Assembly (NCBI GenBank): GCA_017528825.1
Contig: JAFXOI010000031.1
Location: 26,033-90,032 of the forward strand
Direction: 5' to 3'
Origin: Elusimicrobiaceae bacterium
Lineage (GTDB): Bacteria > Elusimicrobiota > Elusimicrobia > Elusimicrobiales > Elusimicrobiaceae
Length of the DNA stretch: 64,000 nt
Part shown: positions 17,825-44,244 of the stretch, piece after piece
How positions within the stretch are numbered: position 1 is the stretch's first letter
Layout: every line of letters starts with the position of its first letter
Notes under the pieces: generated by a model
What the model was told of the DNA's origin: nothing
The model's input: the letters and a program-made list of their open reading frames with translations, nothing else
Databases searched by the model: none
Made by a program: the position numbers and the translations under genes

Positions 17825-19342
17825 ATGTTTGATAAGCAAGCCTATACCTTGTTTAAATTTGGCAAAAAAATTAATCAATCCGCTCAAAACAAACGAGAAC
17901 TACTCGATTGCGCCTTGCCTGCCTTGCGGGAATTATTCCGCTTGGACCGCGTATACTTTTTTGACTGGCAGCAAGAGCGGGCTCTATTATCTTTGCGCAT
18001 GATGTGCAAAAAAGAATATTGCATGGATATGCAGGAAGATATTTCTGTGTTGGGCGAGCCGGAATTTTTGAAAGAGTTGTTGCGCGACGGCATTGCAGAT
18101 TCTACGGATTTGAATTATCCGGCTGTGTATGTACTACTTCGTTGGAAACGTCCTACTATGACGCTGGAAGGAGAAGAAATTAAAAATACGATTAAAACCC
18201 GTTTGGGCGTTTTGCGTTTGGAGCGTTTCCGTAAAACCCGTGTTTTCACCGAAGCAGAAAAGAAACTGATTAAAGGAGTGGCGGCTGAAATTTCACGCAA
18301 TCTCACGCATACGGAAGGGGACCAGGCCAAAAACCAACGCTTAAACATTGCCACGGCACTCAATGATTTGGCCACCGTATTTGCTTCTTCTTTACGTTTA
18401 ACGGACGGACTGGGTCTTATTTTGCAAGGGGTGCAAAAATACTTTCGTTTTGACCGTGTACGTTTGTACCAAACCAATTATGACGGCACCAAAATTAAAT
18501 CTATTTTGGGAGTAGATATTTCCGGACAGGTGGAACGCCAAGAAGGCGAGAGCCTGCCTGCGGAAGAGCGCGCTTTGTTACAGGAAATGTTTGAGGCGGG
18601 CGAATCCTACCGTTTGGTGCACAACGTGGTCTATATTCCTTTGCAAGTACAGCGTAACAAAGTGGGTTTTTTAACCTTTGATAATTTGCTTTCTCGCCGA
18701 CGTATTGACTATTTGGACTTCGTCTCCTTAAAACAATTTTCTACCCAAATTGCCTTGGCCATAGACAATGCAGCCCTGTTTGAACGGGTGCAAGAATTGT
18801 CCAATTATGACGAGCTGACCAAACTGCCGGTGCGGCGTTTCTTTGCGGAAAAATTAAGTGATGAAATGGCTCGTTCCAAGCGGTTTGATTTAATTATGTC
18901 TATCATTGTATTGGATATTGATTTATTTAAGCAAATCAATGATACGTATGGACATCAGATTGGGGACTGGGCACTCAAACAGGTCAGCCAAGTTTTACGT
19001 ACCAGCCTGCGGCAAACCGATGTTCCGTGCCGTTACGGTGGGGACGAAATGGTGATTATGTTGCCGCGCACCAATGGGGACGAGGCCAAAATTATTACCA
19101 AACGCCTGAAAGATAAAATTAACAATATAGCTATTCCCAGCCGCTATACGGACGGCCAACGGGTTACGTTAAGTATTAGTCAAGGGGTTTCTTCTTTTCC
19201 TCAAGACGGACAGACTGCGGAAGAATTGTTTGATAAAGCCGATAAAGCCTTGTACTGGGTGAAGAACGGGCGGCGCGGCACGTTTGCAATATACCGCGAA
19301 ATAGCGGATGATTTGCCGCAAGCGGAACCGGAAAAGAAGTAA
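17825..19342 (+). CDS. Soluble GAF-GAF-GGDEF diguanylate cyclase
   Basis: YDELTKL, LDIDLFKQINDTYGH, RQTD I-site and RYGGDEM, ADKALY. GAF-like segments (FDRVRLY, QIALAIDNA). No TM. Confidence 0.9.
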   Translation: MFDKQAYTLFKFGKKINQSAQNKRELLDCALPALRELFRLDRVYFFDWQQERALLSLRMMCKKEYCMDMQEDISVLGEPEFLKELLRDGIADSTDLNYPAVYVLLRWKRPTMTLEGEEIKNTIKTRLGVLRLERFRKTRVFTEAEKKLIKGVAAEISRNLTHTEGDQAKNQRLNIATALNDLATVFASSLRLTDGLGLILQGVQKYFRFDRVRLYQTNYDGTKIKSILGVDISGQVERQEGESLPAEERALLQEMFEAGESYRLVHNVVYIPLQVQRNKVGFLTFDNLLSRRRIDYLDFVSLKQFSTQIALAIDNAALFERVQELSNYDELTKLPVRRFFAEKLSDEMARSKRFDLIMSIIVLDIDLFKQINDTYGHQIGDWALKQVSQVLRTSLRQTDVPCRYGGDEMVIMLPRTNGDEAKIITKRLKDKINNIAIPSRYTDGQRVTLSISQGVSSFPQDGQTAEELFDKADKALYWVKNGRRGTFAIYREIADDLPQAEPEKK

Positions 19343-19470
19343 ATAGTTGTCATTTCCGAAGGCAGAAATCGGGGATGAGGGTGTTTTGTACAGGGAGTTT
19401 CGTACGCGCACACGCGAAAAAAATTTGACAAGCAAAGAAAAAGTTGTAAAAATGTATATGATATAGTCCG

Positions 19471-19499
19471 CACACTTTGATATAATGTATCAAGGTGTG
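19471..19499 (+). promoter_or_regulatory. Extended -10 promoter centred in a 12-bp inverted repeat
   Basis: CACACTTTGATA-taatg-TATCAAGGTGTG (one mismatch). TGaTATAAT at 19478-86. A TTGACA also lies at 19425-30. Confidence 0.65.
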
Positions 19500-19631: not shown

Positions 19632-22600
19632 ATGACAAAACATTTTTGGAAAACTTTGTGTAGCAAGGCGGCCATTGCGGCAGTCTTGCCGTTGTTGTTT
19701 GTGGTAGTGCCGCAATGTGTGCACGCCCAATCGGCCGAAATTCGTTCTGCCGGTGTATATTATATTGACGGCCTAAGTGACATCAACAGTGTATATTGTA
19801 ACTGGGGTGCCGACAATATTTCCAATGCCGGGCAAGCGGCGTACAAGAGCGGTATCGTGGATGTGGCGGCTCATCAAACTGCTGATCCGTGGGATACCTC
19901 GGCCCTTATTGAGTATGATCAACCTTATCCGGCTCCCAATCAGCCCAACAATTATCCCAACCATTGTTTGGCGTTATGCTTTGATGTGTATTGTACCAAT
20001 AAACCCAACGGCGCTACAACTTACTCTATTTCTTTCCCGTTGCAAACCATTCAATTTGAAATTGCCAAATACAATAATTCCAAAGATATCGGTTCTTCCG
20101 AAACTAACCCGGCTGTGCGCACCATTATGGAAAGTATTATTGACAATAATATTTTGGTGGGTGGCGCTACGGGGCCTATGCCCGATACGGATTTATCTAA
20201 GTACATGTGTGCCGCCTATTCGTGCGTAGGTTCTGCAGCCACCTTTGGTGCGACTCAAAGTTGTCCTAACCCTCAATACGAATGTATTGAAAAGTCTGCT
20301 CTTTCTTCTAGCGATATGGGGCCGAACTGTCAAAATCCTCCTTCGGACATTATTAAAAAAGTTACTCATTGCTGTCGTTCATTAAATACGACTGCTTCTA
20401 CCTATGACTATCCTGCGATAACTACTAGGGACGCACAAGATAGTTTTGTCCCCGGGAAAAAAGAAACCGGTGGAGTAGAATATATAGAATGTGGAAATAG
20501 TGTATTGGGTTGTAAAGATGATGGAAGCGGTTGTATTAATGGCCGCGAGACTCCTTGTATTCAACGTTCCATGGGTACCGGTAAAGGATACAATGACCCA
20601 ATCCGCTTCTGCACATCTTGGGACGGTTCATATGAAATTTTAGGCGAATTTGGAAAAACCAACGGGCAATTTGGTTTCCGCGCCAATGTGAAAACCAATT
20701 ATCCCGGTGATAACATCGCTGTAGAAGAAATCGCCATTGACGATACCTTCATTTACCCCAGCGATAACCAATATCCTATTCAGGTAGACGTGACCAACGT
20801 GCACACCGTACGCAGTACGGCTACGGTGGTGGGTTCTATTACGTCTGTCATGGCTACACCTTACACGGTAACCTACCGCCTCAGTAAAGATGCGGATGTC
20901 AGTATCCAGGTATTTGATGCTTCTCATGCGGTGCCGTATACGCAGTCTGACTGGAATCCCAGCGCTACCATGGTAGATGCTATTTCTTACAATGATTCCA
21001 CCAACATCCTGCTTACTCAGCCCGTGCGCCACTTAGTGGATTGGCAGCCGCGCTTAGGCGAAGGGATGAAAGGCTCTGATAAAGACGTGATTTTGCAAGA
21101 GTCCGAAAGCTGGGACGGTCGCGATGACTCCGGCCGCTTATTGCCTGCCAATAACTATTTGATTTCTATCCAAGCCAAGACCCAAGACGAATGGCCGGGC
21201 ACGGATTTCTCCCGTGCGGTTACCCGCCAGCTCAGCTTGGATCCGTTAAAACTAACCGATATTGTGGTGCAAGGGCTCAACAAACAGTCTACCGCCTACG
21301 CCCGTGTCAATTATGTTCCGACGGAAGCATCCACGGTGTACTTTGAAGTATATACGCCGGGCACCACCTTTGCCAGTGAATATACGCGCGGCTTTGAACC
21401 GACCGGTTCTCGCCCGGTAATTGCGAATGGTACCGGTTCCTTGGTCTATTCCAATCACCAACAGCGCAATCGCGGGCTGAGCTACCCCGATAAATGGGAT
21501 GGTTTGTGCCATGTGGCAACCGGTTGTGACTTGGCTTATCCGCGCGGAAAGAAACTACCCTTTACCGGAGACGTGTGGAATGGCACAGCAACTCTCTGTA
21601 CGGACCCGATTTCCGCAGGCGGAAACGCAGGTACAGTATCCGGTCAGAATTGTGTGATCACTTCCCAAGAAGGCGCACCGATGCCGGATGGAGACTATGT
21701 ATATGTACTCTGGGCAGAAGTGCCGTACACGGATCACTATTTTAACGCAGCGGCCTGTTATGGACCGGGTACCCCGCAGTCTGCCGGATGTACCGGAACG
21801 ATTAACTGCAGCGGTAACAACGGTGCCTATACTTGTACTACCACCGTACGCGGAACCACTAATACCTGTTCTACAGCCGGTACCGCGGGTAGCAATGCTG
21901 CAGCTTGTACCGGTGCCTTTACCGGTGTAAAGACCCAACGTTACTATACCGGACACTTGCCTATTGAACGCGGTGTGGTAGATATTACTATTCAACCCGT
22001 TAGCTACGCCACTATCGGTTCCAGCCCGACGGCGTATGGCTTAGATCCGTTTATCTTTAAGTACTCTATTGCCCGTGAAGCTACCGTGAATGCGTATGTC
22101 AAAAATACGGCCGGTGTAAAGGTGAAAACCCTTACCAACGAAGGCGGTAACACCAATGTGGCCCAACAGATGAACACATTAACTTGGGACGGACGCGATG
22201 ATAATGGGCGTATGGTCAGTGCCGGCACCTATATGTTTGTGGTGGAAACCTCGGACCCCATGTTCCCGCAAAGTGTCAAAACCCAAGCGGCTTCTATCTT
22301 CCCGGTGGACTTGTATAGAGTTACGAATGTCTCTACAACGGATGTCTATGGAGACAGCGCGGCTAAAGCAACCATAAGTTATATGCTTTCTAAGGCCATG
22401 AATGTACAGATCAACATATATAATAAGGATGTAGTGGTACCTGTACAAAACACGACAGCCGGTGCACAACAGATTACGCAGGAAACAACCACGGCCAATG
22501 TGCTGGGGTTGCCTGAACTGCCGGGCTTGACCAGTACGGCGGTTCCTGCTACGGTTATCGGCGCAACTTTAGTGGCAGGGGACAGCGTAGGCTCTACCTA

Positions 22601-24608
22601 CTATGTATATACGACCCCGGTGGTAACAGGTAGTACCTATTATTATTACCGTGCTTTGAAATATGTTTCCGCAGTTACTGCCACTACTGAAAACTATGAA
22701 GTTCAGGAAGTGGTGCGCGTGGACGGGACTACTGCCCCGTGGCCGCCGCGCGTCTGCGACAGACAAACCGATGCGGCTTACTTTACAGGCGGATATGTAG
22801 ATCCGACCAAGTTCCCGCAGTGTATTTATGTCAATGACACCAACTTTACCAATTATCCGGCTAACCCCAAAGCAGCCGAGTATAACTATACCGAAGGCGC
22901 CCGCCAAACCTTGGATGTGCGCTTACAGCCGGTAAAAACTTTCAACCGCTCTGCCTTGAAGGCCGGAGACGGCGTAGTGAATATGGAAGAATGGGATGCT
23001 CAATACTTCTATAACCCGACGCCGGTATCTGTGGCCGATGGCGGCAAAAATACATTAGCTGCGGTACAAGCGTGTAAAAATCAAACCGATATTACCAAAT
23101 GTCCGTATGAAATGATTCCGGACGGTACTTATCCGTTGTATATTGCGGCTCGTACCCAAGAGCCGGTGGACGTCTATTACAACCAAACAACAGCCATTCC
23201 GTTCCGCACCGCGGCTGAGGTACTCCCGCAAACCGGTCTGTATGCTACAGATAAACCGGTATACCGGATTAATATCTCTCGTGGGCCGGTGTACTTTATT
23301 GACGGCACGGTGGCGGTGTATCCCAATGCTCCGCAGTTGTACAACGTGTCTTCCGGTCCTATTTTCGTGCCGCCGTATGAGATTAACTTCTCTATTTCCC
23401 GTGCGGCTACGGTGGAAGTAGCTGTGGTGGCCTTGCAAGACGGTTTGTGCACCACCACACGCGATACAGGGTCCTCTTACTCGCGCTTGCCCTACAACAA
23501 TAAGGCAGGGGATGTGTGTAAATTCTTAAGCACCATGACTATTCCCAATACCGCTAACTTTGACCCAAACATTGTTCGTAAGCTGTATTGGGACGGTACC
23601 GATAATAACGGCAAGTATGTCAAGAACGGTAACTATGAAATCCGCTTGACGGCCAAAAACTATCCGGATGAAGGATTGTATCAGCCCACGGTCAAACAGC
23701 TGACCTTGAACGTAGATTTGCTCAAGGTGTATGACTTGCCGGAATCGGAAGCCTACTCTATTAATAAGCGTGGTATAGACATGAAAGTGTCTTACCAGAT
23801 TTCCGTGCCGATGAAAGTGGCCATCCAGATCTTTAAGCCGGGTACCACCATTTACGACTATACAAAAGGTACCTTGCGTGACCCGTCCACCGGACAGGAA
23901 GTAACCGATATCCGCGATGTGCTGGTCAGATCCATTGTGGGTATCCGCCCATCTACCACCTTGATTGAAGAGGTGTGGGATGGTACGGACTATGCCCAAC
24001 AGGGTGTGCCGGACGGTACCTATCCGTTACGCTTTGTAACGGCGTTGAATGGCGCAGATATTGACTCTGTTACCGGAGAAGTGTTGGCCGGTAGCGATGC
24101 GGCCGGTTCCACCGATTATAAGATAAATTACGTGGCTGATACGTATCAGTACGTGAACTTGCATCATGCTACAGTGGCTATCGGTGACGGGGAGTTCGTC
24201 TGCGAAGACTGGGAGAAAACGGTATTCTTCTATCCCAACCCGTTCAAAACAGCCACCGGTACATTAGAAATTACTAAGTTACCAGTGCCCGGTAAAATGT
24301 CTATTAAGATGTATAACTTGGCCGGTGACTTGGTGCGCGAAGGCGGATACACTTGTGTGGATGCTCAAAATATGTCTGTGACAATGGGTAGCTCTCTACA
24401 AGTCAGTCCGGATAATAATGTCAGCAGTACCACTTATACGGGTGGTATGCCGTCCCTGCGTAATGCGGCCCTGCGCTGCTTCTGGGACAAAACCAACGAC
24501 CATGGTAAACGTGTGGCCCGCGGGGTATACTTCGGACTAGTGGATTTCCGTGCTCAAAACGGCAGACAACACTGCCAAAAGGTAGTGAAGATTTTAATTC
24601 CGAGATAA
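19632..24608 (+). CDS. 1658-aa secreted protein with repeated FlgD-like Ig modules, Cys-rich inserts and T9SS-type-A-like C-terminal domain
   Basis: Signal peptide ending AQS. Repeated WDG motifs (e.g. WDGRDDSGRLLPANNY, WDGRDDNGRMVSAGTY, WDGTDNNGKYVKNGNY). C-terminus FYPNPF...MYNLAGDLVR...ARGVYFGLV...KVVKILIPR. Confidence 0.75.
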   Translation: MTKHFWKTLCSKAAIAAVLPLLFVVVPQCVHAQSAEIRSAGVYYIDGLSDINSVYCNWGADNISNAGQAAYKSGIVDVAAHQTADPWDTSALIEYDQPYPAPNQPNNYPNHCLALCFDVYCTNKPNGATTYSISFPLQTIQFEIAKYNNSKDIGSSETNPAVRTIMESIIDNNILVGGATGPMPDTDLSKYMCAAYSCVGSAATFGATQSCPNPQYECIEKSALSSSDMGPNCQNPPSDIIKKVTHCCRSLNTTASTYDYPAITTRDAQDSFVPGKKETGGVEYIECGNSVLGCKDDGSGCINGRETPCIQRSMGTGKGYNDPIRFCTSWDGSYEILGEFGKTNGQFGFRANVKTNYPGDNIAVEEIAIDDTFIYPSDNQYPIQVDVTNVHTVRSTATVVGSITSVMATPYTVTYRLSKDADVSIQVFDASHAVPYTQSDWNPSATMVDAISYNDSTNILLTQPVRHLVDWQPRLGEGMKGSDKDVILQESESWDGRDDSGRLLPANNYLISIQAKTQDEWPGTDFSRAVTRQLSLDPLKLTDIVVQGLNKQSTAYARVNYVPTEASTVYFEVYTPGTTFASEYTRGFEPTGSRPVIANGTGSLVYSNHQQRNRGLSYPDKWDGLCHVATGCDLAYPRGKKLPFTGDVWNGTATLCTDPISAGGNAGTVSGQNCVITSQEGAPMPDGDYVYVLWAEVPYTDHYFNAAACYGPGTPQSAGCTGTINCSGNNGAYTCTTTVRGTTNTCSTAGTAGSNAAACTGAFTGVKTQRYYTGHLPIERGVVDITIQPVSYATIGSSPTAYGLDPFIFKYSIAREATVNAYVKNTAGVKVKTLTNEGGNTNVAQQMNTLTWDGRDDNGRMVSAGTYMFVVETSDPMFPQSVKTQAASIFPVDLYRVTNVSTTDVYGDSAAKATISYMLSKAMNVQINIYNKDVVVPVQNTTAGAQQITQETTTANVLGLPELPGLTSTAVPATVIGATLVAGDSVGSTYYVYTTPVVTGSTYYYYRALKYVSAVTATTENYEVQEVVRVDGTTAPWPPRVCDRQTDAAYFTGGYVDPTKFPQCIYVNDTNFTNYPANPKAAEYNYTEGARQTLDVRLQPVKTFNRSALKAGDGVVNMEEWDAQYFYNPTPVSVADGGKNTLAAVQACKNQTDITKCPYEMIPDGTYPLYIAARTQEPVDVYYNQTTAIPFRTAAEVLPQTGLYATDKPVYRINISRGPVYFIDGTVAVYPNAPQLYNVSSGPIFVPPYEINFSISRAATVEVAVVALQDGLCTTTRDTGSSYSRLPYNNKAGDVCKFLSTMTIPNTANFDPNIVRKLYWDGTDNNGKYVKNGNYEIRLTAKNYPDEGLYQPTVKQLTLNVDLLKVYDLPESEAYSINKRGIDMKVSYQISVPMKVAIQIFKPGTTIYDYTKGTLRDPSTGQEVTDIRDVLVRSIVGIRPSTTLIEEVWDGTDYAQQGVPDGTYPLRFVTALNGADIDSVTGEVLAGSDAAGSTDYKINYVADTYQYVNLHHATVAIGDGEFVCEDWEKTVFFYPNPFKTATGTLEITKLPVPGKMSIKMYNLAGDLVREGGYTCVDAQNMSVTMGSSLQVSPDNNVSSTTYTGGMPSLRNAALRCFWDKTNDHGKRVARGVYFGLVDFRAQNGRQHCQKVVKILIPR

Positions 24609-24627
24609 GTGTAGGAAATAACAAACT

Positions 24628-25590
24628 ATGAAAAATAAAGTTTTAATTGCTTGTTTTGCTCTCGCCTTGGCAGCTCCGGCTGCTTGGGCTGACTCGTATG
24701 CAGATGCCGGTACTAGTGCTAGCGCATTCTTGAAGATTGATGCGGGATCTCCGCGTGCGCAAGCCTTAGGTAACGCGTATGTGTCTATTGCAGAAGGACC
24801 GGAGGCCTTGTTTTGGAACCCGGCCGGTGCCGCTTCCGCTACCACGCGGGAGTTAGCTTTTGCTTATCAAGATTATTTGCAAGGTTATAAGGCACGCACC
24901 TTAGCGTATTTGCAACCTATGGGCAAAACGATTATCGGTGTAACATTCAACTACATGGATATGGACGGCTTTGATTACCGCGATGAATACGGTTATCAAC
25001 AACCTACTGTAGGTAAACCGGTACAGAACTTTGTGGGTAGTTTGTCATTGGCCCGCGGATTTTTCAACCAAGGATTACAACTGGGCGCTACCGCTAAGTA
25101 CATCAATGAAAAATTGGATACCTACCGCTACACCAACGTCGGTTTTGATGTGGGGGCTAAAGGGCGTCCGTGGCATTGGTTAGGTTTAGGTGGTGCCATT
25201 ATTAACATCGGTGACAAAAAAGAAATGCCGCGCGGTTGGCGTGTGGGTGCCGATATTGATACGAAGTATTGGACCATTTCCGGTGAATATATGAAATACC
25301 GCGACGATCAGGGCCGCTACGGGGTTGGTTTAGAAGTACATATTCCGGAAGATTTATTGCAAGTGGCTCGGTTTGATTTGCGCGTAGGTTATTACGATCG
25401 TGAAAGCACCGGTTACAGCGAAAGCAAAAATTTGAAGAGTTTAGGACTTGATAGTACCTCTAAAGTTTCCTTCGGGTTTGGTATTTATAGCTCTGAATTA
25501 TTTGGCTATGGTGCCAGCATTGATTACGCAGTTACCCCGTTTGGGGCTTTAGGTACTTCGCAACAAATTGCGGTATCGGTGCAATTTTAG
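24628..25590 (+). CDS. PorV/PorQ-family (FadL-like) outer-membrane beta-barrel
   Basis: Signal peptide, AFLKIDAGSPRAQALGNAY and ALFWNPAG plug motif, alternating beta-strands, terminal Phe (AVSVQF). Confidence 0.8.
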   Translation: MKNKVLIACFALALAAPAAWADSYADAGTSASAFLKIDAGSPRAQALGNAYVSIAEGPEALFWNPAGAASATTRELAFAYQDYLQGYKARTLAYLQPMGKTIIGVTFNYMDMDGFDYRDEYGYQQPTVGKPVQNFVGSLSLARGFFNQGLQLGATAKYINEKLDTYRYTNVGFDVGAKGRPWHWLGLGGAIINIGDKKEMPRGWRVGADIDTKYWTISGEYMKYRDDQGRYGVGLEVHIPEDLLQVARFDLRVGYYDRESTGYSESKNLKSLGLDSTSKVSFGFGIYSSELFGYGASIDYAVTPFGALGTSQQIAVSVQF

Positions 25591-25639: not shown

Positions 25640-25834
25640 ATGAATACGATGCACAAAGTAAAAAGCCTGGTCGTAAACAAAAAAGGGCAAACGGCTGTGG
25701 AATATATTATTACAGCTTTTTCGCTTTTTGGGGCTTTCTTAGCGTTTTATGCTTTGTATTCTAATATGGTTCCGCAACAGTTCGACCAAGGAGCCAAAGT
25801 CATTTTGTCAGTATATGACACAAGTAGTAATTAA
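25640..25834 (+). CDS. Flp/TadE-like pilin
   Basis: KKG|QTAVEY followed by a hydrophobic helix. ATG 25640 follows ggaagg; ORF track starts at 25607. Confidence 0.8.
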   Translation: MNTMHKVKSLVVNKKGQTAVEYIITAFSLFGAFLAFYALYSNMVPQQFDQGAKVILSVYDTSSN

Positions 25835-25857: not shown

Positions 25858-26079
25858 ATGAAGTTTATTATCGCCATGCAAAATAAGTTGAATGCTGCCA
25901 AAGCGGCTGCCATCAACAGCTTAAAAAAACAAGAAGGCCAGAACACCATCGAATACATCATTATGTTAGGTGTAGTAGTAGGTATTGCCCTGCTCGTTGG
26001 TACGTTGGTTAAAAACATGATGCCGGAAGTCTTTGAGAACATCAAAGCCAAAATTTTGGGCGGCGTCAACCAAGACTAG
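25858..26079 (+). CDS. flp: Flp (type IVc) pilin, probable major subunit
   Basis: KKQEG|QNTIEYIIMLGVVVGIALLVG, short mature part (about 46 aa), strong SD agggagg. Confidence 0.88.
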   Translation: MKFIIAMQNKLNAAKAAAINSLKKQEGQNTIEYIIMLGVVVGIALLVGTLVKNMMPEVFENIKAKILGGVNQD

Positions 26080-26096: not shown

Positions 26097-26585
26097 ATGA
26101 CAATTTTTCATAGGAGGCATGAGGGGCAGGTAACGGTAGAATTGATGCTCATTCTGCCGGTGCTAATGTTGATGATATTCTTTATCCTAGAATATGGCAA
26201 CATTGCCTATCATACCATTATTGCTAACCATGCTTCCTATGAATTTGCCCGAATCGGCGCTTTAACAGGGGCTAAAAAGCCTAGCGGTAAAGCCAGTACC
26301 GGGCCGATGGTAACAAAGATTAACGCGGCCAAGCAAAAGGTGTTTGGCGCGGATGCATCCCGCATTTCGGTGAAAGTTAAATTGCAAAACACCGGTGTGG
26401 ACCCGATGTATAAAAAACATCGGCATGAAGATGTAATCGTAACGGTGGTATATCCGGTGCGGTTAGCGTTTCCGGGGACTAGTTGGTTACTCGCCAGCGA
26501 GCCGAAACGCAACGGTGTACGCAAAATAGAAGCTACTACGCGTATGCCGGTAGAAAAATTATATGCCGGCTCGGATCCTAAGTGA
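26097..26585 (+). CDS. tadE: TadE/TadF-like pseudopilin
   Basis: HEG|QVTVELMLILPVLMLMIFFILEYG, ASYEFARIGA, V.VTV.YPV. Confidence 0.85.
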   Translation: MTIFHRRHEGQVTVELMLILPVLMLMIFFILEYGNIAYHTIIANHASYEFARIGALTGAKKPSGKASTGPMVTKINAAKQKVFGADASRISVKVKLQNTGVDPMYKKHRHEDVIVTVVYPVRLAFPGTSWLLASEPKRNGVRKIEATTRMPVEKLYAGSDPK

Positions 26586-26644: not shown

Positions 26645-27397
26645 ATGAAAAAAGGAATTATGCTTCCGTTGCTGTTAGCATTCTTAGCAGCTTTGGTTTA
26701 TTGGATGATTGTACACAATGCTGAAAAAAAATTGAATGCTTCTAAGACAGTCAAAACTGTTTTGGTGCCTGTGCGCGATATTAAAGAGCGCGAAGTAATT
26801 AAGCGTGACTACTTGAAACGCATTCAAGTGCCTGCTGCCTATGTGCAAAAAGACGCTTTTACTTATACAACCGATGCAGATTTTGCCAAAATAGACAATG
26901 CCATTGCACGGATTCAAATCCCGAAAGGAAACCAGATTTCCAAATATGCCGTTACCTCGCTTTCTCCCGAGGCCGGTTTGTCCAGTAAAATTCCGGTTCA
27001 GATGAGAGGTTTTGTCATGGTGGTCGATAGCAACGTAGCTAGCATGATTAAACCCGACGATAACGTGGACATCTTGCTCACGTTTGAGGCCCTGATGAAA
27101 ACAGGGGCTCGGCAGAAAGTAACCGTAACGCTACTTCAGAACGTAAAAGTGTTAGGTGTAGGTTCTGACTTGGGACAAGGATTGGATGCCAAAGCGGCCG
27201 CCGCCTTGCGTAACCAAGAGGAAGACGCTTCCGCGTATACAGATACGAGCGCGTTGAGCTTGGCTCTGTCTCCGCGTGATGCACAATACTTAGCCTTGGC
27301 TAAGGAAGAAGGAACGTTATCCGTCATCTTACGTTCTCACGGAGATGTGACGAACTACTTGATGGAAATTGCCACCTTTGAGAAATTATTTTCATAA
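26645..27397 (+). CDS. cpaB: Flp pilus assembly protein CpaB/RcpC
   Basis: N-terminal TM, SAF domain (VLVPVRDIKERE), IKPDDNVDIL, LLQNVKVLGVG, LALSPRDAQYLALA. Confidence 0.9.
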   Translation: MKKGIMLPLLLAFLAALVYWMIVHNAEKKLNASKTVKTVLVPVRDIKEREVIKRDYLKRIQVPAAYVQKDAFTYTTDADFAKIDNAIARIQIPKGNQISKYAVTSLSPEAGLSSKIPVQMRGFVMVVDSNVASMIKPDDNVDILLTFEALMKTGARQKVTVTLLQNVKVLGVGSDLGQGLDAKAAAALRNQEEDASAYTDTSALSLALSPRDAQYLALAKEEGTLSVILRSHGDVTNYLMEIATFEKLFS

Positions 27398-27415: not shown

Positions 27416-28150
27416 ATGAAATTTACTTCTAAACTGACTTTATGGATATTGCTACTGGTGTTAGCTTGCCCTGCCGCATTTGCTAAGAAAACGCATTTGG
27501 TGGCTGTAAGTGCCGACGTGGTAGAAATCGGCGGTACGATGACTTCGGCCAAAGGGTTTGAATGGAACCAAATCTTTGACTTTGAAGAAGCCAACATCCC
27601 GGGTATTTTATCTTTGGGTGAATTTGCCCGTAAGACAGCGGTCATTACCCGTTTACGTTTATCCGAAACGGAAGGGCGGGCGCAGATTTTGTCCAACCCG
27701 AAAATTGTGACCAGTTCCGGTAACAGCGCCAAAATTACGGTAGGTGGTAAAGTGCCTATACCGGTGGTAAATAACCAAGGGGTAGGTTCCCAGTTGGAAG
27801 AATATGGTATCTTGCTAAACGTATTACCTACCATTATTCCGGAAAGAGGGAATATTATTGACTTGCAGGTACAGTTGTCTGTATCTTCAGTAGACTATTC
27901 TCGTACGGTATCCGTCGGTACCGCTACGGCTCCTTCTTTCACCAACCGTGACGTGGAAACCCATGTGGAACTCAATAGCGGGGAAACCTTGGTGATTGGC
28001 GGTTTGAAGAGCAGCTACCGCAACGTTAGTGAAACCCGCGTGCCATTTCTGGGACGCCTTCCGTTAATCGGTTTGTTGTTTAAGTATAAAGACGTAACGG
28101 AAGAACAACGCTCTCTATTCTTGTTTATTACCGTGGAAGTGGTGGAATAA
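27416..28150 (+). CDS. cpaC: Minimal secretin (CpaC/RcpA-like, secretin domain only)
   Basis: Signal peptide followed directly by GRAQILSNPKI...GGKVPIP...YGILLNVLP...LNSGETLVIGGL...VPFLGRLPLIGLLF. Confidence 0.88.
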   Translation: MKFTSKLTLWILLLVLACPAAFAKKTHLVAVSADVVEIGGTMTSAKGFEWNQIFDFEEANIPGILSLGEFARKTAVITRLRLSETEGRAQILSNPKIVTSSGNSAKITVGGKVPIPVVNNQGVGSQLEEYGILLNVLPTIIPERGNIIDLQVQLSVSSVDYSRTVSVGTATAPSFTNRDVETHVELNSGETLVIGGLKSSYRNVSETRVPFLGRLPLIGLLFKYKDVTEEQRSLFLFITVEVVE

Positions 28151-28155: not shown

Positions 28156-30450
28156 ATGGCAGAAGAACAATTAGAAAACCCGAAAAGCGAAGCAAAAATT
28201 ATCGCATTAAGCTCTCCCAAAGAAGGCGCAGGGAAAACAACCCTGACGCTCAATTTGGCGCTTGGTTGGGCCGGTATTCAAAAGAGACCGGTGTTAATTG
28301 TTCCTCTCGATCCTTTAGCCCGTCAAGAGCATAGCTTTTATTTGGATATTAAAAAGCCGGTCAGCGTGGCTGATATTTTGCGCACGCTCGGCAATGCCAA
28401 CATCGCCGTAGTGGGCGGGTTGTTACGCGGTAAAATTTCCATGTCTCAATGGGGGGTGGGGGTGTTGCCTTTGGGAAATACGCGTGCCCAAATTGCCTCT
28501 ATCAGTCCTAAAATTTTAATTCCCATTCTGTCACGCTTATCGCAAACGTTTGATATTTTCTTGGATGTGGATTCTTCTTTCCCGATGCAGGCGTTTGCTT
28601 TTGATATTGCAGATAAGATTTTTTGGGTGTCCAATGCTACACGTACGCATCTGAACTCCACCGTGCAGTTGTTTAATGATTACAAAGAACAGCGCTATCC
28701 TATGGAACGGGTAAGTGTCATTTGTAACCAGTACGACATGCCGGGATCTATCCCTTACGAAGAAGTGGAAAAGTTTTATAACTCCTTAGGCCGCGGTATT
28801 GATGTATTTTTACCTTGGGATGAGGGGATTATGACCACTTCCAATCAGAAAGGGGTGGAAATTATTTCAAATCCGCAGTCTGAGTGGATTAAGGGCTTGC
28901 GTTTAGTATTGGCTAAAATCCGTGATTTAACGCCCGCACCTAAAGATTGGCACGCTTCTGTATCAGATGAAGAATTTACGCAAGCAGCCAAAGAAATTTG
29001 GGCTCCCATTATGGCAGGCGGAGTGGGAGTTGGAGCTGGGCCGGAAAGCCATATTGCAGTGGAAGAAGAAGGAGAAGCCGGCAAAACGAAACTATCTTTC
29101 TGGGATGATTTGAAACAAAAAATCCACAAAGAAGTAGTCCGCACGCTGGAAGTGGAACGTATTGTGATTAGTGATGAAAGTTCCGCCAGTGCACAAACCC
29201 GCAAACGGGTGGCGGCTATTGTGGACGACATTTTGCAAAAGCAGCCCAATTTGCAGTTCTCCCGCGATCAACGTACTCGCTTTGCTTCTGAATTGTTAGA
29301 TGAAATTTTGGGGTTAGGGCCCTTGGAAACCTTGATGCGCGATGCCAGCGTTACCGAAATCATGGTCAACGCCTTTGACAAGATTTTTATCGAGCAAAAA
29401 GGTAAGTTGACCTTAACCAAATACAAATTTAGAAATAACGAACAAGTGGTGCAGGTAATCAAGCGTATTGTATCTCCGTTAGGACGTCGTATTGACGAAT
29501 CCGTACCACTCGTAGACGCCCGTTTGAAAGACGGTTCCCGTGTCAACGCTATTATTGCGCCGTTGGCGGTGTCCGGACCTACCTTGACGATTCGTCGTTT
29601 CTCGCAAAAACCTTTCGGACCGGAAGATTATTTCCGCTTTGGTACGATTAGTCCGGAATGTATGGAATTTTTACAGAAATGCGTAAAAATTCGTAAAAAC
29701 ATTATTGTGTGCGGTGGTACCGGTACCGGTAAAACTACATTCTTGAACGCGCTTTCCGGTTATATTGCCAATGATGAACGTATCATTACGGTAGAAGATA
29801 CGGCCGAGCTTCGTTTGCAACAGCCACACTGGGTATCGTTGGAAAGCCGTCCGCCCAACGTGGAAGGAAAAGGTGCTATTACCATTCAAGATTTAGTTAA
29901 GAACTGCTTGCGTATGCGTCCGGACCGTATTGTAGTAGGGGAGTGCCGCGGTGCAGAAGCACTGGACATGTTACAGGCCATGAACACCGGTCACGAAGGT
30001 TCTCTGACCACTATTCACGCCAATACCCCGCGTGACGGACTATCTCGTTTGGAAGCCATGTGTATGCAGGCCAGCGGAGATTTACCCATTTTTGCTATTC
30101 GCGAAATGATTTCGTCAGCCGTAAATATGATTGTACAGCTGTCTCGTTTTTCGGACGGCTCCAGAAAGGTAACCTACATCACGGAAATGCACGGACAAAA
30201 AGACGGGATGATTCAATCTACCGACTTGTTCCGCTATGTGCAGACCGGAGTAGATGAGAATGGTAAAGTGCAGGGGATGTTCGCCCCGACAGGCAATTTG
30301 CCTACTTTCTACAATGATTTTAAGGCAAAAGGGGTACCGGTGCCGGAAGATGTGTTCTTGAAAGGGGCTATTAAGTTTGACGAAGATGATAACCCCATCT
30401 TGCCGCAATCCGAACAAACCCCACCGCCACCGCCGGGAGTACACGGATAA
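28156..30450 (+). CDS. cpaF: CpaE/TadZ (ParA-like) fused to CpaF/TadA assembly ATPase
   Basis: N-terminal [10 protein letters not shown]-terminal [41 protein letters not shown]. Confidence 0.92.
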
Positions 30451-30454: not shown

Positions 30455-32080
30455 ATGAAGAAGATAGGATGGCTGATTAGTTTGTTGATACTGGTGTTGG
30501 GAGTGTTAGCTCCGCGGCCGGTGTCTGCGCGCGCTTTGGACCAAAATGACAAACGCAAAATAGAGTGTGCGATGTTTAAGATGTATGCGCTGAGTAACTA
30601 TTTTAACGTCGACATGCCAGCCGATCAAAAACAATATAAGTATCCACAATCCTGTGGAAAAAATCTAGCCGGAAAAACTATTAAGATGCCTGATTGGTTT
30701 CCTAAAGAATTGGAAGCCATGGACAAATTAAAAGTGGTCTACATCCAAGGGGAAGGAACCTTGAGTGAAGCGACTCTTTGGTACCGTACTTTTGCTAACG
30801 TATATGCTTTCTTAGACCGGGCCAACAATGCTTTGGATCCCAGTCAACCGGTAGTTCTGGAACAGCTTTCTCGCGGTTATGTAAGCAACAGAATTAAATT
30901 GGTTTCTAACTTAGACCGTTTAAATAAAGAACTGGTACGTGGTCAAGAAGTGTACAGCATGAAAGATAGTATGCAGGGACGCGGCCGGTCTATGTTGGCC
31001 ACCTTGGAATTTATGAACCGTGAGTTTTATAGCACGATTGAGTCTTTTACCAGTCCTGCTGCTCAAAAGGAGAATAAATACCGCCAATCTGTGATGGCTG
31101 TGGTTACACTGGCTAATCAACTGTGGAGCGAGTTCCGTGCGGCTCCGTTGCCGGCCAATCCGCCGGATGCCAAGATTTATCAAACTACCGATGGTGAACG
31201 CTTATTTAGCACCTTGCTAATGCTTTTGGGTGCTTTCCTCATTGGTTACGCGGTTTATCTATTGATGGAAGCCAAGAGCGATGAAATTAATCGTGGTTGG
31301 GCCCAGTACCGTGAAAAGAGTATGATTTGGGCCGAAGATTTCAACCGTCAATTTTTGACCATTGATGTAAAGTATATTGTATTTGGAACGTTGGCTGTCT
31401 TTGCGTTGATGGGGTTATTGATGGGAATATCTATGGGTGGTTTTGGCGGAGTATTGATATTTATTCTATTTGTGATAGTGGGTGCTTATGCCGGAATCCG
31501 TATGCCCAAAGTAGTGTTGGATAAACTTAAAAAGAGCCGCGGGGTCAAGATTAATGGCCAGCTGATGGATGCCTTAATTTTGCTATCCAACTCTTTGCGC
31601 TCCGGTATGGATATTGTGCAGGGGTTTGAGTTGGTGTCACACGATATGCGTCCGCAGATTGCCGATGAATTTGGCCTGGTGATTAAGAATTATCAATTAG
31701 GTACGCCGTTTGAAAAGGCCTTGGAAGGCCTGGACGAACGGGTGGAAAGCCGTATGCTTTCTTATACGATTAAAGCCATTATCATTCAACGACAGGTGGG
31801 TGGAAACTTGACGGTTATTTTCTCACGCTTGGTGGAAAATATTCGTGAAGAAAGTAAGTTGGAAGAAAAATTGGAAGCTATGACTGCCCAACAAAAAATT
31901 CAGTCCATTGTGGTCAGTATTATGCCGGTCATTATGCTAGGGGTTATGTTCTTGTTCCGCCCCGATGAGATGATTGGCTTTTACACCACTCCTGTAGGCA
32001 TTTTTGTGCTGTTCTTCTGCTTTGTGTGGATTATGATTGGTATGAAACTCATCCAAAAATTGGGCGAGGTGAGGGTATAA
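30455..32080 (+). CDS. tadB: TadB-like platform protein with N-terminal exported domain
   Basis: Signal peptide MKKIGW...VSA, about 230-aa soluble domain, then TMs and the T2SSF domain QLMDALILLSNSLRSG...QRQVGGNL. Confidence 0.85.
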   Translation: MKKIGWLISLLILVLGVLAPRPVSARALDQNDKRKIECAMFKMYALSNYFNVDMPADQKQYKYPQSCGKNLAGKTIKMPDWFPKELEAMDKLKVVYIQGEGTLSEATLWYRTFANVYAFLDRANNALDPSQPVVLEQLSRGYVSNRIKLVSNLDRLNKELVRGQEVYSMKDSMQGRGRSMLATLEFMNREFYSTIESFTSPAAQKENKYRQSVMAVVTLANQLWSEFRAAPLPANPPDAKIYQTTDGERLFSTLLMLLGAFLIGYAVYLLMEAKSDEINRGWAQYREKSMIWAEDFNRQFLTIDVKYIVFGTLAVFALMGLLMGISMGGFGGVLIFILFVIVGAYAGIRMPKVVLDKLKKSRGVKINGQLMDALILLSNSLRSGMDIVQGFELVSHDMRPQIADEFGLVIKNYQLGTPFEKALEGLDERVESRMLSYTIKAIIIQRQVGGNLTVIFSRLVENIREESKLEEKLEAMTAQQKIQSIVVSIMPVIMLGVMFLFRPDEMIGFYTTPVGIFVLFFCFVWIMIGMKLIQKLGEVRV

Positions 32081-32082: not shown

Positions 32083-32967
32083 ATGGACATGTTATCACTA
32101 ATTCTCAATCTCATTTTACTGTTTGGAGCCGTGTCTTTATTTTTTGCGGTGCTGGCCATTTTCGCCCCAAAAGAGGAAGGCGGTCAGATTGTAGACGTCG
32201 CTGCCCAACGTTTTAAGTCTTCTTCCAGTTTTGCCAGTTTGCAACCCGAAACTAAGTTTTGGGACCGGGTTGCTGTATTCTGCTTAAATACCTTCCATCT
32301 GGAAAAACCGTTGGAAGAAATTCATATGCAGTTAGGTAGCCCGGACTATCCGCAACCGGTGAATATTCTGTATTGGAAAGTAGCCTGTGCGATTGGGGTG
32401 CCGCTGGCCATCATGATTATGTTCCAAACCGTTTTTGGAATACTTTTTGTACCGGTAGGTTTTTATTTGCCGGATATGATGTTGAAAAGTAAGATCCAAA
32501 AACGACAAGCCGAAATTTTGGGGAACTTTTCTACTACCGTAGATTTGGCCGCTCTGATTATTGAATCTGGTTTGGATTACTTAACCGCTTTTGAACGTAT
32601 TATCAGTATTGCAAAGGTGAAGACGGTATTGGAAGAAGAACTGGAAAAAACCCTCAATGAAATTAAGTTGGGTTATTCCCGCCGTGAAGCGTTGGAACGC
32701 TTTGCAAACCGTACCGGCGTACAGGAAGTGCGCTCTTTGGTCGGCTTGATTATTCAATCCGATGAGTTGGGTACCAGTTTGGTGGATTTGTTGCGTAACT
32801 TCTCCTCCGATTTGCGAAGTCGTCGTATGAGCCGTGCCGAAAAACTGGCCGCACAGGCTTCTACAAAAATGTTGTTTCCGTTATTTGTATTTATTTTCCC
32901 GACAATCTTTATTCTGATTTTGTCGCCGATGATTAAAGGTCTGTTGTCGCAAGGATTAAGTTTTTAA
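32083..32967 (+). CDS. tadC: TadC platform protein
   Basis: DLAALIIESGLD, LIIQSDELGTSL, AEKLAAQASTKMLFPLFVFIFP. Confidence 0.9.
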   Translation: MDMLSLILNLILLFGAVSLFFAVLAIFAPKEEGGQIVDVAAQRFKSSSSFASLQPETKFWDRVAVFCLNTFHLEKPLEEIHMQLGSPDYPQPVNILYWKVACAIGVPLAIMIMFQTVFGILFVPVGFYLPDMMLKSKIQKRQAEILGNFSTTVDLAALIIESGLDYLTAFERIISIAKVKTVLEEELEKTLNEIKLGYSRREALERFANRTGVQEVRSLVGLIIQSDELGTSLVDLLRNFSSDLRSRRMSRAEKLAAQASTKMLFPLFVFIFPTIFILILSPMIKGLLSQGLSF

Positions 32968-32977: not shown

Positions 32978-34363
32978 ATGAAAAAATCTTTATTATTTTT
33001 ATGTATCTTGTCTGTTTCTCTTACCTCAGCGGCGGCTCCGTTCCGCCAGCCCAATCCCATTCGTCAACACGGAAAAGAAGAGGGGATGATGTTGGACTTG
33101 AATAAAATTACGCTGGGTACGCTCAATGATGTGGAAGAAAAGAAACAATATCTTTCCACCGTACAACTGGAGAAACAGCGTATCCAAAACTACATGTTGC
33201 ATCAGGTGTATGAAGATGCTTATACCCTGTACCGCCGCGGGGATTATCAACGGGCACAGGAAATGGCGCAAACCATTTTGAGTATTGACCCCAATTATAC
33301 GCAGGCCTCTACGCTAGCCAAACAAGCCGGTAATATGGGGGCCTATGGTACGACTTCGGAAGCCGAAGTTATCGATGCTAAATTTCAGGAAGCCAACCGG
33401 ATGTATGATTCCGGGCGCTTGGTAGAAGCTAATGAAAAATTAGATGAGATTTTAACCCTGCAACCGCACAATTCAAAAGCATTATCTTGGAAACATCGTA
33501 TCGATCGTGATATTGCCCAAGAATATGCCCGTCGCGGTAATGTGGCCTACGACAAAAAAGATTACAAAGAAGCGTTGGATAATTGGTATAACGCTTTGCT
33601 CATTCGTAAAGATGATCCGAATTTAGTCAATAAAATTGCCCAAACGGAAAATCAATTGCGCCAACAACAAGTAAAAGATGCCATGGAAAAAGCAATGGAT
33701 TACTACAACAAAGGGCAATACTTGGAATCTTACTCTACTTTTGAACGGATTACTAAAATCCAACCCGGAGATCAACGGGTACAGAAATACATGAGCCAGT
33801 TAAAAGACGAGATTGCCACCAGTTATTACGATGCTGGAAATAAGTCTTATGGAATGCAAAAATATGACAGCGCAGTCACCTACTATACCAATGCTAAAAA
33901 GTGGGGGGCTGATGCTAATCAAATGGACCAGTTGATCAAACGCGCTCGCAATGCCAAAGAGAATGCCTTGCGCCGCAAACAAGAAGCCGCCGCTAAAGCT
34001 GCGGAAGACGCGAAAAAGAAGATAGAGGAAGAGGCTAAAGGACCGGAGGAGGAAGAACCGATTGAAACCGTGCCGGTGGAAGGTAATACCGGCGGTTTAA
34101 CACCGCTTACTCCGGGAACAGCTCCTTCTTTGGGTCCGGATAGTAATACAACCACAGACGGCATTGGCGGAGCGACTGGCCGCGTGTCGGAAGAAGCCAG
34201 AGAAGCCTCTAAACAGAAATATCTGGAAGGGTTGGATGCATTTAACCAAGACGACTACGAACGGGCACGCCAAGCCTGGATTGTGGCCAAAAGGTTGGAC
34301 CCAGGCAATACAGATGCTGATTCCGGTTTGCGTAAAGTGGAAGAATTAATCGGCATTCGCTAA
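32978..34363 (+). CDS. Exported multi-TPR protein (TadD/CpaO-like position)
   Basis: Signal peptide, many TPR units (AYTLYRRGDYQRA, ILSIDPNY), Pro/Gly/Thr linker, final TPR. Confidence 0.75.
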   Translation: MKKSLLFLCILSVSLTSAAAPFRQPNPIRQHGKEEGMMLDLNKITLGTLNDVEEKKQYLSTVQLEKQRIQNYMLHQVYEDAYTLYRRGDYQRAQEMAQTILSIDPNYTQASTLAKQAGNMGAYGTTSEAEVIDAKFQEANRMYDSGRLVEANEKLDEILTLQPHNSKALSWKHRIDRDIAQEYARRGNVAYDKKDYKEALDNWYNALLIRKDDPNLVNKIAQTENQLRQQQVKDAMEKAMDYYNKGQYLESYSTFERITKIQPGDQRVQKYMSQLKDEIATSYYDAGNKSYGMQKYDSAVTYYTNAKKWGADANQMDQLIKRARNAKENALRRKQEAAAKAAEDAKKKIEEEAKGPEEEEPIETVPVEGNTGGLTPLTPGTAPSLGPDSNTTTDGIGGATGRVSEEAREASKQKYLEGLDAFNQDDYERARQAWIVAKRLDPGNTDADSGLRKVEELIGIR

Positions 34364-39836: not shown

Positions 39837-39868
39837 GCTAGGTGAATTTTGAACGGGAGCAAAATAAT

Positions 39869-44216: not shown

Positions 44217-44244
44217 TTAATTTTATTTGTAAGGAGCGTAAATT

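Follow-up and report, generated by a model that had tools for sequence, protein, structure and literature searches.

A C-terminal-domain cargo gene and a PorV/PorQ-type barrel gene at the head of the Flp/Tad operon in Elusimicrobiota

C-terminal domain (CTD) signals and PorV-type carriers have so far been treated as parts of the type IX secretion (T9SS) machine of Bacteroidota. To our knowledge, CTD/PorV function depends in every characterised case on SprA and the GldLM motor. In the 64-kb stretch of Elusimicrobiaceae DNA analyzed here (the window), a gene for a giant protein ending in a CTD is followed by a gene for a PorV-like barrel and then by the genes of a Flp/Tad pilus system. The locus raises the question of how these two proteins work together, and by which route the giant protein would cross the outer membrane.

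The gene pair and the Flp/Tad operon

In Elusimicrobiota the Flp/Tad operon opens with the cargo gene, and the barrel gene comes second (Table 1). The sequence-only reading had placed the start of the CTD at 24228, the end of its gene 19 nt before a PorV/FadL-like gene, and Flp pilin genes directly 3' of the latter. All of these positions were recovered, with FYPNP beginning at residue 1533 of the giant protein. No terminator was found in the 19-nt spacer between the giant gene and the barrel gene. The promoter matches upstream of the giant gene denote a candidate operon start; they are consensus matches only, their count is not above shuffled expectation, and promoter and terminator scans of the locus were no better than shuffles. 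Among sequencing runs, the locus was found only in gut DNA metagenomes and in no RNA runs.

The core Flp/Tad set is complete, comprising Flp pilin, TadE-type pseudopilin, RcpC/CpaB, secretin, TadA/CpaF ATPase, TadB and TadC. Further TadG/TadE-like genes are also present. The secretin is devoid of the N-domains for substrate handling, and the HAMP-like membrane protein at the 3' end shares 36% identity with its counterpart in locus L084. A prepilin peptidase (TadV/CpaA, A24-type) had no match among the window ORFs and may be encoded elsewhere.

Table 1. Features of the cargo, barrel and Flp/Tad genes, with positions in the window
Feature	Position	Strand	Remarks
Two overlapping sigma-70-like promoter matches (10/12)	19425..19486	+	candidate; within 290-nt gap 5' of giant gene
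Giant cargo gene	19632..24608	+	1658 aa, stop TAA at 24606-24608
CTD, T9SS type-A class (by profile)	24201..24605	+	CEDWEKTVFFYPNP … ARGVYFGLVDF … CQKVVKILIPR
Spacer	24609..24627	+	19 nt, AGGAAA Shine-Dalgarno-like motif
PorV/PorQ-family outer-membrane barrel (predicted)	24628..25590	+	320 aa, ATG at 24628
Flp pilin 1	25640..25834	+	G|QTAVEY processing motif; alternative GTG start at 25607
Flp pilin 2	25858..26079	+	G|QNTIEY
TadE-like pseudopilin	26097..26585	+	PF07811, 6.9e-12
CpaB/RcpC	26645..27397	+	TIGR03177, 112 bits
Minimal secretin	27416..28150	+	244 aa, secretin domain only, PF00263, 2.3e-41
TadZ-like ParA/MinD domain fused to CpaF/TadA ATPase	28156..30450	+	764 aa
TadB-like platform protein (T2SSF)	30455..32080	+	long N-terminal extension
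TadC-like platform protein (T2SSF)	32083..32967	+	
TPR protein, signal peptide	32978..34363	+	candidate TadD-like component; syntenic in all lineages
Membrane protein, HAMP-like segment	34376..35488	+	conserved at cluster 3' end

Judging from profile comparisons, the window CTD is a real but divergent T9SS type-A-class CTD. Alone it scored below the cut-offs of the curated models, with 21.2 bits against TIGR04183 (cut-off 23, model positions 2-33 only) and 18 bits against PF18962 (cut-off 27); the alignment to these models is broken by an insert of about 45 aa, which the domain carries together with four conserved Cys. It aligned over the full length with the CTD of PorZ, and its score with the C-terminus of PorZ was 30.9 bits (E 1e-7). 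At family-level divergence, comparison of the CTD region and of the barrel profile with the PDB by sequence gave nothing useful, and profiles of distant members were needed; a protein search with the CTD profile returned 25 short fragments only. The profile of Elusimicrobiaceae CTDs matched a profile of CTDs from other phyla with an hhalign probability of 98.8% (E 5e-17). The latter in turn matched the CTDs of PorZ, PorU and the substrates 8glj_D and 8glk_D in the PDB, of which PorZ and PorU were best. These two CTDs are not cleaved off but remain bound, that of PorZ to PorQ and that of PorU to PorV (PMC10202324). Among 29 related CTDs, TIGR04183 matched 24 and the type-B model only three. The motifs present are the terminal position, the PNP start, G-x-Y and a Lys near the C-terminus, the last of which is near-invariant in CTDs (PMC10994853). 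Homology also links the CTD to the FlgD-Ig repeats inside the giant protein, so that part of the CTD signal is generic Ig-fold similarity. A full-length match to the CTD model, from the YPNP start to the K-x-x-K end, was found in the terminal domain only and not in the internal repeats.

In the barrel protein, a signal peptide (…AAWA|DS) and an N-terminal hatch-like segment accompany the 14 beta-strands. It reached 83.7 bits against NF033709, the NCBIfam model of the PorV/PorQ family (Pfam PF19572), with a cut-off of 90; PorQ gave it 65.7 bits and PorV only 20.9 bits. With an HMM of distant members, which bear the NCBI name 'PorV/PorQ family protein', its score was 249.6 bits (E 1e-75), and the profile of these members matched PorV of F. 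johnsoniae (6h3i_F) over the full length with E 1.6e-33. The AF2 model built from 115 sequences has 14 strands and an internal hatch and is of high confidence (pLDDT 90.5), whereas a shallow alignment had earlier given a poor pLDDT of 58.6. Foldseek of this model retrieved as its best two hits the PorV chains 8gl6_F and 6h3i_F, one of them in a substrate-bound complex, with E 5e-12, TM 0.65 and 17-18% identity; the folds of FadL, TodX and TbuX were also matched. Profiles and model both show the 320-aa protein as a predicted 14-strand PorV/PorQ-type outer-membrane barrel.

The giant protein begins with a Sec signal peptide (…CVHA|QS) and a Cys-rich region, contains several FlgD-Ig-like repeats, and bears the CTD at its C-terminal end. 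Its orthologues range from 1512 to 1923 aa and are, like the barrel, labeled 'hypothetical protein' in RefSeq. In the comparison within Elusimicrobiaceae the passenger is the fastest-evolving region, with a median identity of 42% in the N-terminal part and 55% in the middle, and the CTD is the best conserved part, far better conserved than the internal repeats. Fast evolution is the single observation that suggests surface exposure of the cargo, and the protein is likely a major, fast-evolving surface adhesin of gut Elusimicrobiaceae. A role as a periplasmic structural piece of the Tad machine was also considered, and was rejected because no component of the machine evolves nearly as fast as the body of this protein.

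Conservation and spread of the pair

The order cargo-barrel-Flp-Tad was found in all 80 Elusimicrobiaceae genomes retrieved, and the gap between cargo and barrel genes in orthologues is mostly 10-41 nt. The whole neighborhood of the locus is syntenic in this gut family. The same order is present in five deep Elusimicrobiota lineages, where the flanking genes differ, barrel identity goes down to 29%, and the cargo and barrel genes overlap by 4 nt. Since the attachment of the pair to the Tad genes is kept at such divergence and among different flanks, it points to functional coupling rather than accidental synteny. The median identities of the CTD (70%) and the barrel (77% over the 80 genomes) are close to that of TsaD (76%) and thus at housekeeping level. 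This pattern fits a constrained CTD-barrel interface under a variable, exposed passenger, and the gene pairing and joint conservation suggest that the CTD is bound by the barrel.

Pairs of this kind were also found among 80 environmental loci with PorV/Q-like barrels. A CTD gene lies directly upstream of the barrel in 49 of the 70 evaluable cases (70%), against about 11% expected from the density of CTD genes in these loci, and the adjacency is far beyond chance. The loci include one pair from another Elusimicrobia lineage (L087); candidate phyla related to the FCB group, Zixibacteria among them, supply many of the generic pairs, and a lectin/glycoamylase protein is one of the cargoes. A CTD protein followed by a PorV/Q-like barrel is a general and widespread two-gene module outside Bacteroidota. 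Tad genes, however, were present in only one of the 80 environmental loci, and the module therefore does not need Tad. The sequence-only reading had proposed a T9SS module rewired to Tad, with the secretin as exit. Its two-gene cargo/anchor unit holds as a widespread module, and so does the Tad linkage, which is conserved across Elusimicrobiota; the exit through the Tad secretin finds no support in these data. The operon linkage is explained equally well by co-regulation of two adhesion structures.

Proposed mechanism and routes across the outer membrane

With moderate confidence, we read the two proteins as cargo and cognate carrier or anchor, a unit that displays a giant adhesin co-regulated with the Tad pili. 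The giant protein and the barrel are both exported by Sec, as their signal peptides show. The type-A-class CTD, a C-terminal beta-sandwich, would then bind its dedicated barrel non-covalently and stay attached, and in this way the Ig-repeat adhesin, long and fast-evolving, would be kept at the cell surface. Such anchoring is proposed because analogous cases exist: PorV binds CTDs, PorQ retains the uncleaved CTD of PorZ, and PorP/SprF-like barrels anchor type-B CTD proteins. As the pair occupies the first two positions of the operon, the adhesin and the pili of Elusimicrobiota would be made together and may function as one adhesion apparatus.

T9SS machinery was searched for in the window. The SprA/Sov translocon and the PorK/L/M/N (GldK/L/M/N) motor and ring had no match among the window ORFs, in agreement with the sequence-only reading, and no C25 peptidase of a PorU sortase or attachment complex was found in the 64 kb. 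The PorU model matched only the CTD-like regions of the giant protein, and among the remaining ORFs of 120 aa or more none matched a T9SS family of Pfam or NCBIfam. The published TXSScan survey detected T9SS in no group but Bacteroidetes; the complete genome of Elusimicrobium minutum Pei191, a member of the same family, gave none. The survey called no Tad system in E. minutum either, so that its sensitivity in Elusimicrobiota is doubtful. A literature search gave nothing relevant on T9SS in Elusimicrobia or on PorV-like paralogues outside Bacteroidota.

As a full account of the locus, a T9SS translocon at another place in the genome, canonical or divergent (SprA/Sov with a GldKLMN-type motor), is unlikely, although it is the strongest of the alternatives; the barrel would then be a cargo-specific carrier, like PorP/SprF for type-B CTD proteins. 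The CTD is recognized inside SprA together with PorV loops in all studied systems (PMC10994853), the barrel and the CTD are true homologues of T9SS parts, and T9SS is plausible in the FCB-related phyla that contribute many of the pairs. Against this account count the lack of T9SS machinery hits in the 64 kb, the survey results for Bacteroidetes and E. minutum, and the papers searched, none of which links T9SS to Elusimicrobia; the survey carries the reservation that it called no Tad system either. Passage through the co-encoded Tad secretin, in which the cargo is pushed by the Flp/pseudopilus as in type II and afterwards captured by the barrel, seems still less likely. Its favor comes from the linkage kept in six Elusimicrobiota lineages at low barrel identity and with differing flanks, from the TadE-like pseudopilin and the further TadG/TadE-like genes, and from the same negative T9SS results in the window and E. 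minutum. The environmental loci, L087 being an example, carry the same module almost always apart from Tad genes, the secretin is minimal, and co-regulation accounts for the linkage as well. Moreover, we know of no Tad system that exports a non-pilin protein.

The strict one-to-one pairing of cargo and barrel genes across many phyla, the translational coupling of some pairs by the 4-nt overlap, and the occurrence of relatives with no detected T9SS would also conform to a two-partner-like system, in which the 14-strand barrel, perhaps with BAM, passes the cargo starting from the CTD and uses neither SprA nor Tad. TPR domains are fused to some members of the family, a feature reminiscent of Slam-type translocators. 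We consider this export by the barrel very unlikely: folded Ig domains would not fit through a 14-strand barrel of the FadL/PorV type whose lumen holds a hatch, the system has no evident energy source, and no PorV-family protein is known to act as a translocon. Hardly credible is the reading in which no specific partnership exists: the last domain would be one more FlgD-Ig repeat, the barrel would take up hydrophobic compounds as a FadL-like channel, and the adjacency would be inherited synteny. The sub-threshold TIGR04183 score, the resemblance of the CTD to the internal repeats, the matches to FadL, TodX and TbuX and the synteny within the gut family would all be compatible with it. But the adjacency is kept where the flanks change and recurs in unrelated phyla well above expectation, and the terminal domain differs from the repeats both in its full-length CTD-model match and in its conservation.

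For the outer-membrane step within the favored cargo and carrier/anchor unit, a translocon elsewhere is tentatively placed first; some other route is possible, if doubtful, the Tad secretin is unlikely, and the barrel acting autonomously is more unlikely again. A route common to all such pairs, either a translocon elsewhere or barrel/BAM-assisted passage, is more likely than the Tad secretin, because in other loci the module does without Tad genes. A bolder and unlikely proposal is that a type-A-class CTD with a dedicated PorV/PorQ-type barrel forms a self-standing display/secretion module that is independent of SprA/GldKLMN, both in Elusimicrobiota and in further candidate phyla. The Elusimicrobiota would have built it into the Tad operon, and passage across the outer membrane would be given by the Tad secretin with the pseudopilus or else by the barrel. 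If this were true, T9SS cargo recognition would predate the T9SS translocon or could be separated from it.

Comparison with known systems

Two points emerge: CTD/barrel gene pairs are common well beyond Bacteroidota, and one lineage of them is fixed at the head of the Tad pilus operon throughout Elusimicrobiota. If the genomes are truly without SprA and the GldLM motor, the T9SS carrier/anchor step can use another outer-membrane route. The finding bears on the evolution of T9SS and on surface building in little-studied phyla, and since Elusimicrobium minutum is cultivated, the model is open to direct testing.

The operon resembles the Flp/Tad systems of Aggregatibacter and Caulobacter in its Flp with G|XXXXEY, TadE, CpaB/RcpC, secretin, TadZ-like domain, CpaF, TadB, TadC and TPR protein. 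It differs from them in that genes for a CTD cargo and then a PorV-like barrel stand first, in its secretin of only 244 aa, in the TadZ-CpaF fusion, and in having no prepilin peptidase in the cluster. The barrel has its fold and family in common with PorV of Flavobacterium johnsoniae (PDB 6H3I, 8GL6). PorV, however, is a single general carrier that serves many cargoes and docks on SprA, whereas the window barrel appears dedicated to one; with 320 aa it also falls about 80 aa short of PorV (402 aa), and PorV residues ~255-320 are without counterpart in the profile of its family.

The adjacency of a large adhesin gene to its own barrel gene is shared with SprB-SprF, which combines a type-B CTD with a PorP/SprF-like barrel (Gorasia et al. 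2022, PMC9143113). The PorP/SprF-like barrel carries and anchors its adhesin through the CTD (PMC10994853, PMC10202324). The window CTD is by contrast assigned to the type-A class, its barrel belongs to the PorV/PorQ branch, and its host lies outside Bacteroidota.

The pair also resembles PorZ-PorQ and PorU-PorV of the Porphyromonas gingivalis T9SS attachment complex, in which an uncleaved type-A CTD protein is held on the surface by a 14-strand barrel of the PorV family; here the likeness is drawn from sequence and model. The CTD profile best matches PorZ and PorU, and the barrel scores best against PorQ. The genes porZ and porQ are not known to be neighbors, and their products act downstream of SprA/Sov in Bacteroidota, whereas the window pair is a gene couple inside a Tad operon, in a phylum with no T9SS detected. 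The cargoes are different too: PorZ is an A-LPS delivery protein, and the cargo in the window is a giant Ig-repeat protein.

Organization of the cargo/barrel locus

The host of the window is a gut member of the Elusimicrobiaceae near Candidatus Avelusimicrobium, and the genes surrounding the cargo/barrel pair are all encoded on the forward strand. The sequence-only reading had placed a T9SS type-A-like C-terminal domain (CTD) directly before a PorV-like gene, with Flp pilins next; the ORF coordinates bear this out, the barrel gene starting 19 nt past the cargo stop. The giant cargo protein carries several FlgD-Ig-like repeats ahead of the CTD; its N-terminal part is rich in Cys, and its signal peptide is of the classical Sec type. 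A terminator scan found no terminator-like sites between the cargo, barrel and Tad genes. Promoter matches of 10/12 on the forward strand are located only upstream of the giant gene, which is preceded by a gap of 290 nt, though their number is not above the shuffled expectation.

Coordinates of the genes discussed, in the window unless another locus is named
Feature	Position	Strand	Remarks
Type IV pilin gene	5463-5978	+	N-methylation motif, ComP_DUS-like domain
GAF-GGDEF diguanylate cyclase gene	17825-19342	+	directly 5' of the giant gene
Giant-protein (cargo) gene	19632-24608	+	4977-nt ORF, 1658 aa; stop 24606-24608
Barrel gene	24628-25590	+	320-aa ORF; AGGAAA in the spacer before it
First Flp pilin gene	25640-25834	+	G|XXXXEY motif
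Second Flp pilin gene	25858-26079	+	G|XXXXEY motif
TadE-like pseudopilin gene, then CpaB gene		+	3' of the Flp pilin genes
Secretin gene	27416-28150	+	244 aa
TadZ-CpaF fusion gene	28156-30450	+	764 aa
TadB, TadC, TPR protein and HAMP-like membrane protein genes		+	last genes of the Tad set, in that order
Two-component block	36833-40555		precedes the seven-ORF run
Seven consecutive ORFs	40705-53271	+	386, 176, 566, 478, 567, 487 and 1335 aa
Formiminotransferase gene	55861-56835		sole clear exception to the strand bias
Genes 5' of cargo, L084	3109-6458
Genes 5' of cargo, L086	1320-2660 and 4626-6443
Genes 5' of cargo, L172	3636-6754
Gene 5' of cargo, L170	3908-5647
CpaB-secretin fusion gene, L086	12014-13567		one protein of 517 aa

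The window secretin consists of a secretin domain without N-domains, and its signal peptide holds LVLAC, a possible lipobox. The fusion of a TadZ-like ParA/MinD domain to the CpaF ATPase ranges from 725 to 780 aa across all Elusimicrobiota lineages examined. The diguanylate cyclase gene, whose position is syntenic within the gut family and not in the deep lineages, may provide a c-di-GMP input into the adhesion operon. None of the seven ORFs behind the two-component block has a significant Pfam or NCBIfam match. At a relaxed threshold, the 386- and 176-aa ORFs display weak TadG-like (E 0.024) and TadE-like (E 6.5e-4) N-termini, and the remaining ones give one chance-level match only; on these N-termini, the Tad regulon may extend into this region. 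The type IV pilin, encoded far from the Tad cluster, indicates that there is another pilus or a competence system. Nearly all genes of the window lie on the forward strand, and all but a few 2-kb bins have a positive GC skew, as a single leading-strand replichore arm should show.

Homology of the barrel and the C-terminal domain

The barrel scores 83.7 bits against the NCBIfam PorV/PorQ family model (cut-off 90), 65.7 bits against PorQ and 20.9 bits against PorV. An exhaustive profile search retrieved 5822 cluster representatives of its family at E <= 0.001 and 1312 at E <= 1e-10. Where distant relatives are named by NCBI, they are called 'PorV/PorQ family protein' and come from Zixibacteria, Edwardsbacteria, Coatesbacteria, Elusimicrobiota and Bacteroidota. 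An HMM of 40 distant members, built without gut-family sequences, matches the window barrel with 249.6 bits (E 1e-75) and the Flavobacterium johnsoniae PorV (6h3i_F) over its full length with E 1.6e-33. The AlphaFold2 model (pLDDT 90.5, pTM 0.84, from a 115-sequence alignment) predicts a 14-stranded structure whose N-terminal segment is hatch-like. In a Foldseek search of the PDB with this model, the top two matches are PorV chains, 8gl6_F (E 5e-12, TM 0.65) and 6h3i_F, ranked above FadL, TbuX and TodX. The profile homology together with the predicted fold thus identifies the barrel as a genuine, compact member of the PorV/PorQ family. Some other PorV/Q-like members carry TPR repeats (P0297, P0302, P0310 and P0321; 371-378 aa), and others are lengthened to about 500 aa (P0342, P0352, P0354 and P0364).

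The CTD of the giant protein matches TIGR04183 with 21.2 bits (cut-off 23), covering the first 33 model positions only. This marginal score is due to about 45 inserted residues that separate the strands bearing the motifs IKMYNLAGDLV and WDKTN…GVYF; four Cys residues are conserved in the domain. Against the PorZ CTD it aligns end to end, with 30.9 bits for the whole protein and 28.1 bits for the isolated domain. The Elusimicrobiaceae CTD profile matches the barrel-adjoining CTDs of other phyla with 98.8% probability (E 5e-17), and 24 of 29 of the latter match TIGR04183. The profile of these other-phyla CTDs in turn finds the CTDs of PorZ (5m11, E 8.6e-12) and PorU (6za2, E 1.1e-11) in the PDB, as well as the substrate CTDs from the SprA-PorV complex structures (8glj_D and 8glk_D). 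The terminal domain alone matches the CTD model over its full length; for the internal FlgD-Ig repeats, the match is confined to the middle of the model. At the profile level, the homology of the CTD is clear.

Conservation of the pair and its linkage to Tad genes

A scan with one genome per species yielded 80 loci, all from Elusimicrobiaceae-type MAGs, whose barrels are 69-97% identical. All sufficiently long loci share one gene order, which runs from the giant gene through the whole Tad cluster. Median amino acid identity to the window is 42% for the N-terminal part of the giant protein, 55% for its middle, 70% for the CTD, 77% for the barrel, 76% for the housekeeping protein TsaD, 86% for the secretin and 87% for CpaF. 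Within the neighbourhood, the passenger thus evolves fastest, and the CTD and barrel are conserved at the housekeeping level, a pattern that would be expected of an exposed variable adhesin with a constrained docking interface. In RefSeq, the gut-family giant protein and barrel are both named 'hypothetical protein'. Some contigs with this locus (77-92% identity) are filed in records titled Eggerthellaceae, Duodenibacillus, Muribaculaceae and Spirochaetes (L005, L011, L030 and L033), probably through binning contamination or mislabelling.

Five deeper Elusimicrobiota lineages, L084, L086, L172, L170 and L171, have barrels with 42, 39, 35, 34 and 29% identity to that of the window, respectively, and all of them keep the cargo-barrel-Tad order. 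Their cargoes are large FlgD-Ig proteins (1063 to more than 4700 aa) with a full-length CTD at the C-terminus, and the barrel gene often overlaps the cargo gene by 4 nt. In all five, the barrel is followed by two small pilin genes, TadE, CpaB, a minimal secretin and the TadZ-CpaF fusion; CpaB and the secretin of L086 are fused. TadB is present where the contig reaches (L084, L170 and L172), with TadC and the TPR protein next in L084 and L172; in L171, the TadZ-CpaF fusion is succeeded by unrelated genes. The genes flanking the block vary by lineage; that the order persists regardless strongly supports, on comparative grounds, an association of the pair with the Tad genes in Elusimicrobiota that goes beyond family synteny. 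In the non-gut members, conserved genes lie 5' of the cargo gene, encoding in L084, L086 and L172 a protein of about 450 aa whose N-terminus bears a FadL/PorV-like signature and whose tail is helical, and a coiled-coil protein of about 550-615 aa, the only one found in L170. BLASTP at 1e-3 gave no homologues of these two proteins in the window.

The wider-family profile retrieved 80 environmental loci (712 kb) with 88 full-size barrels, of which 70 have enough upstream sequence. A same-strand CTD-ending ORF lies directly upstream in 49 of these 70, against about 11% expected from CTD-gene density, and directly downstream of 13 barrels; altogether 65 of 80 CTD-bearing ORFs touch a barrel. For example, the gene of a 1123-aa malectin/glycoamylase/F5_F8 protein on an Elusimicrobia contig overlaps its own barrel gene by 4 nt, and that of a 245-aa CTD protein on a Zixibacteria contig lies 7 nt upstream of its own. 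Only one of the 80 loci has any Tad homologue. Since the pairing occurs mostly at Tad-free loci, a CTD protein with its own PorV/Q-like barrel constitutes a general module, of which the Tad-linked Elusimicrobiota pair is one branch.

Secretion route and relation to known systems

In the 64-kb window, the remaining ORFs with a length of 120 aa or more gave no T9SS family match (Pfam, NCBIfam), in agreement with the sequence-only reading. The TXSScan survey detected T9SS in Bacteroidetes only (Abby et al. 2016), and Elusimicrobium minutum Pei191 is zero for every system in its supplementary file 2, including Tad and type IV pili. Because Tad too scored zero, the sensitivity of TXSScan in Elusimicrobia is uncertain, and standard models probably miss atypical machines of this phylum. 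No paper tying Elusimicrobia to T9SS was found in the literature searched. It had been proposed that the cargo may cross the outer membrane via the Tad secretin rather than SprA. The operon linkage across the phylum lends this route some support, but the module also occurs without Tad, and we regard it as a minority possibility.

The individual parts of the pair are of known kinds. As far as the literature and annotations were searched, the gene couple of a type-A-class CTD cargo and a PorV/Q-type barrel, its abundance outside Bacteroidota, and its fixation at the head of a Tad operon in a phylum without detected T9SS are undescribed. In the known systems, PorV grips type-A CTDs by surface loops inside SprA and then carries the cargo off, and type-B cargoes exit on other carriers, which afterwards anchor them (PMC10994853). 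PorU and PorZ retain uncleaved CTDs, which remain bound to PorV and PorQ, and cognate PorV-like barrels were proposed to shield the CTDs they handle (PMC10202324). Such cognate carrier/anchor logic fits the window pair best: the CTD would bind its own barrel and thereby tether a giant, presumably surface-exposed adhesin to the outer membrane, and this adhesin would be produced together with the Flp pili and may function with them.
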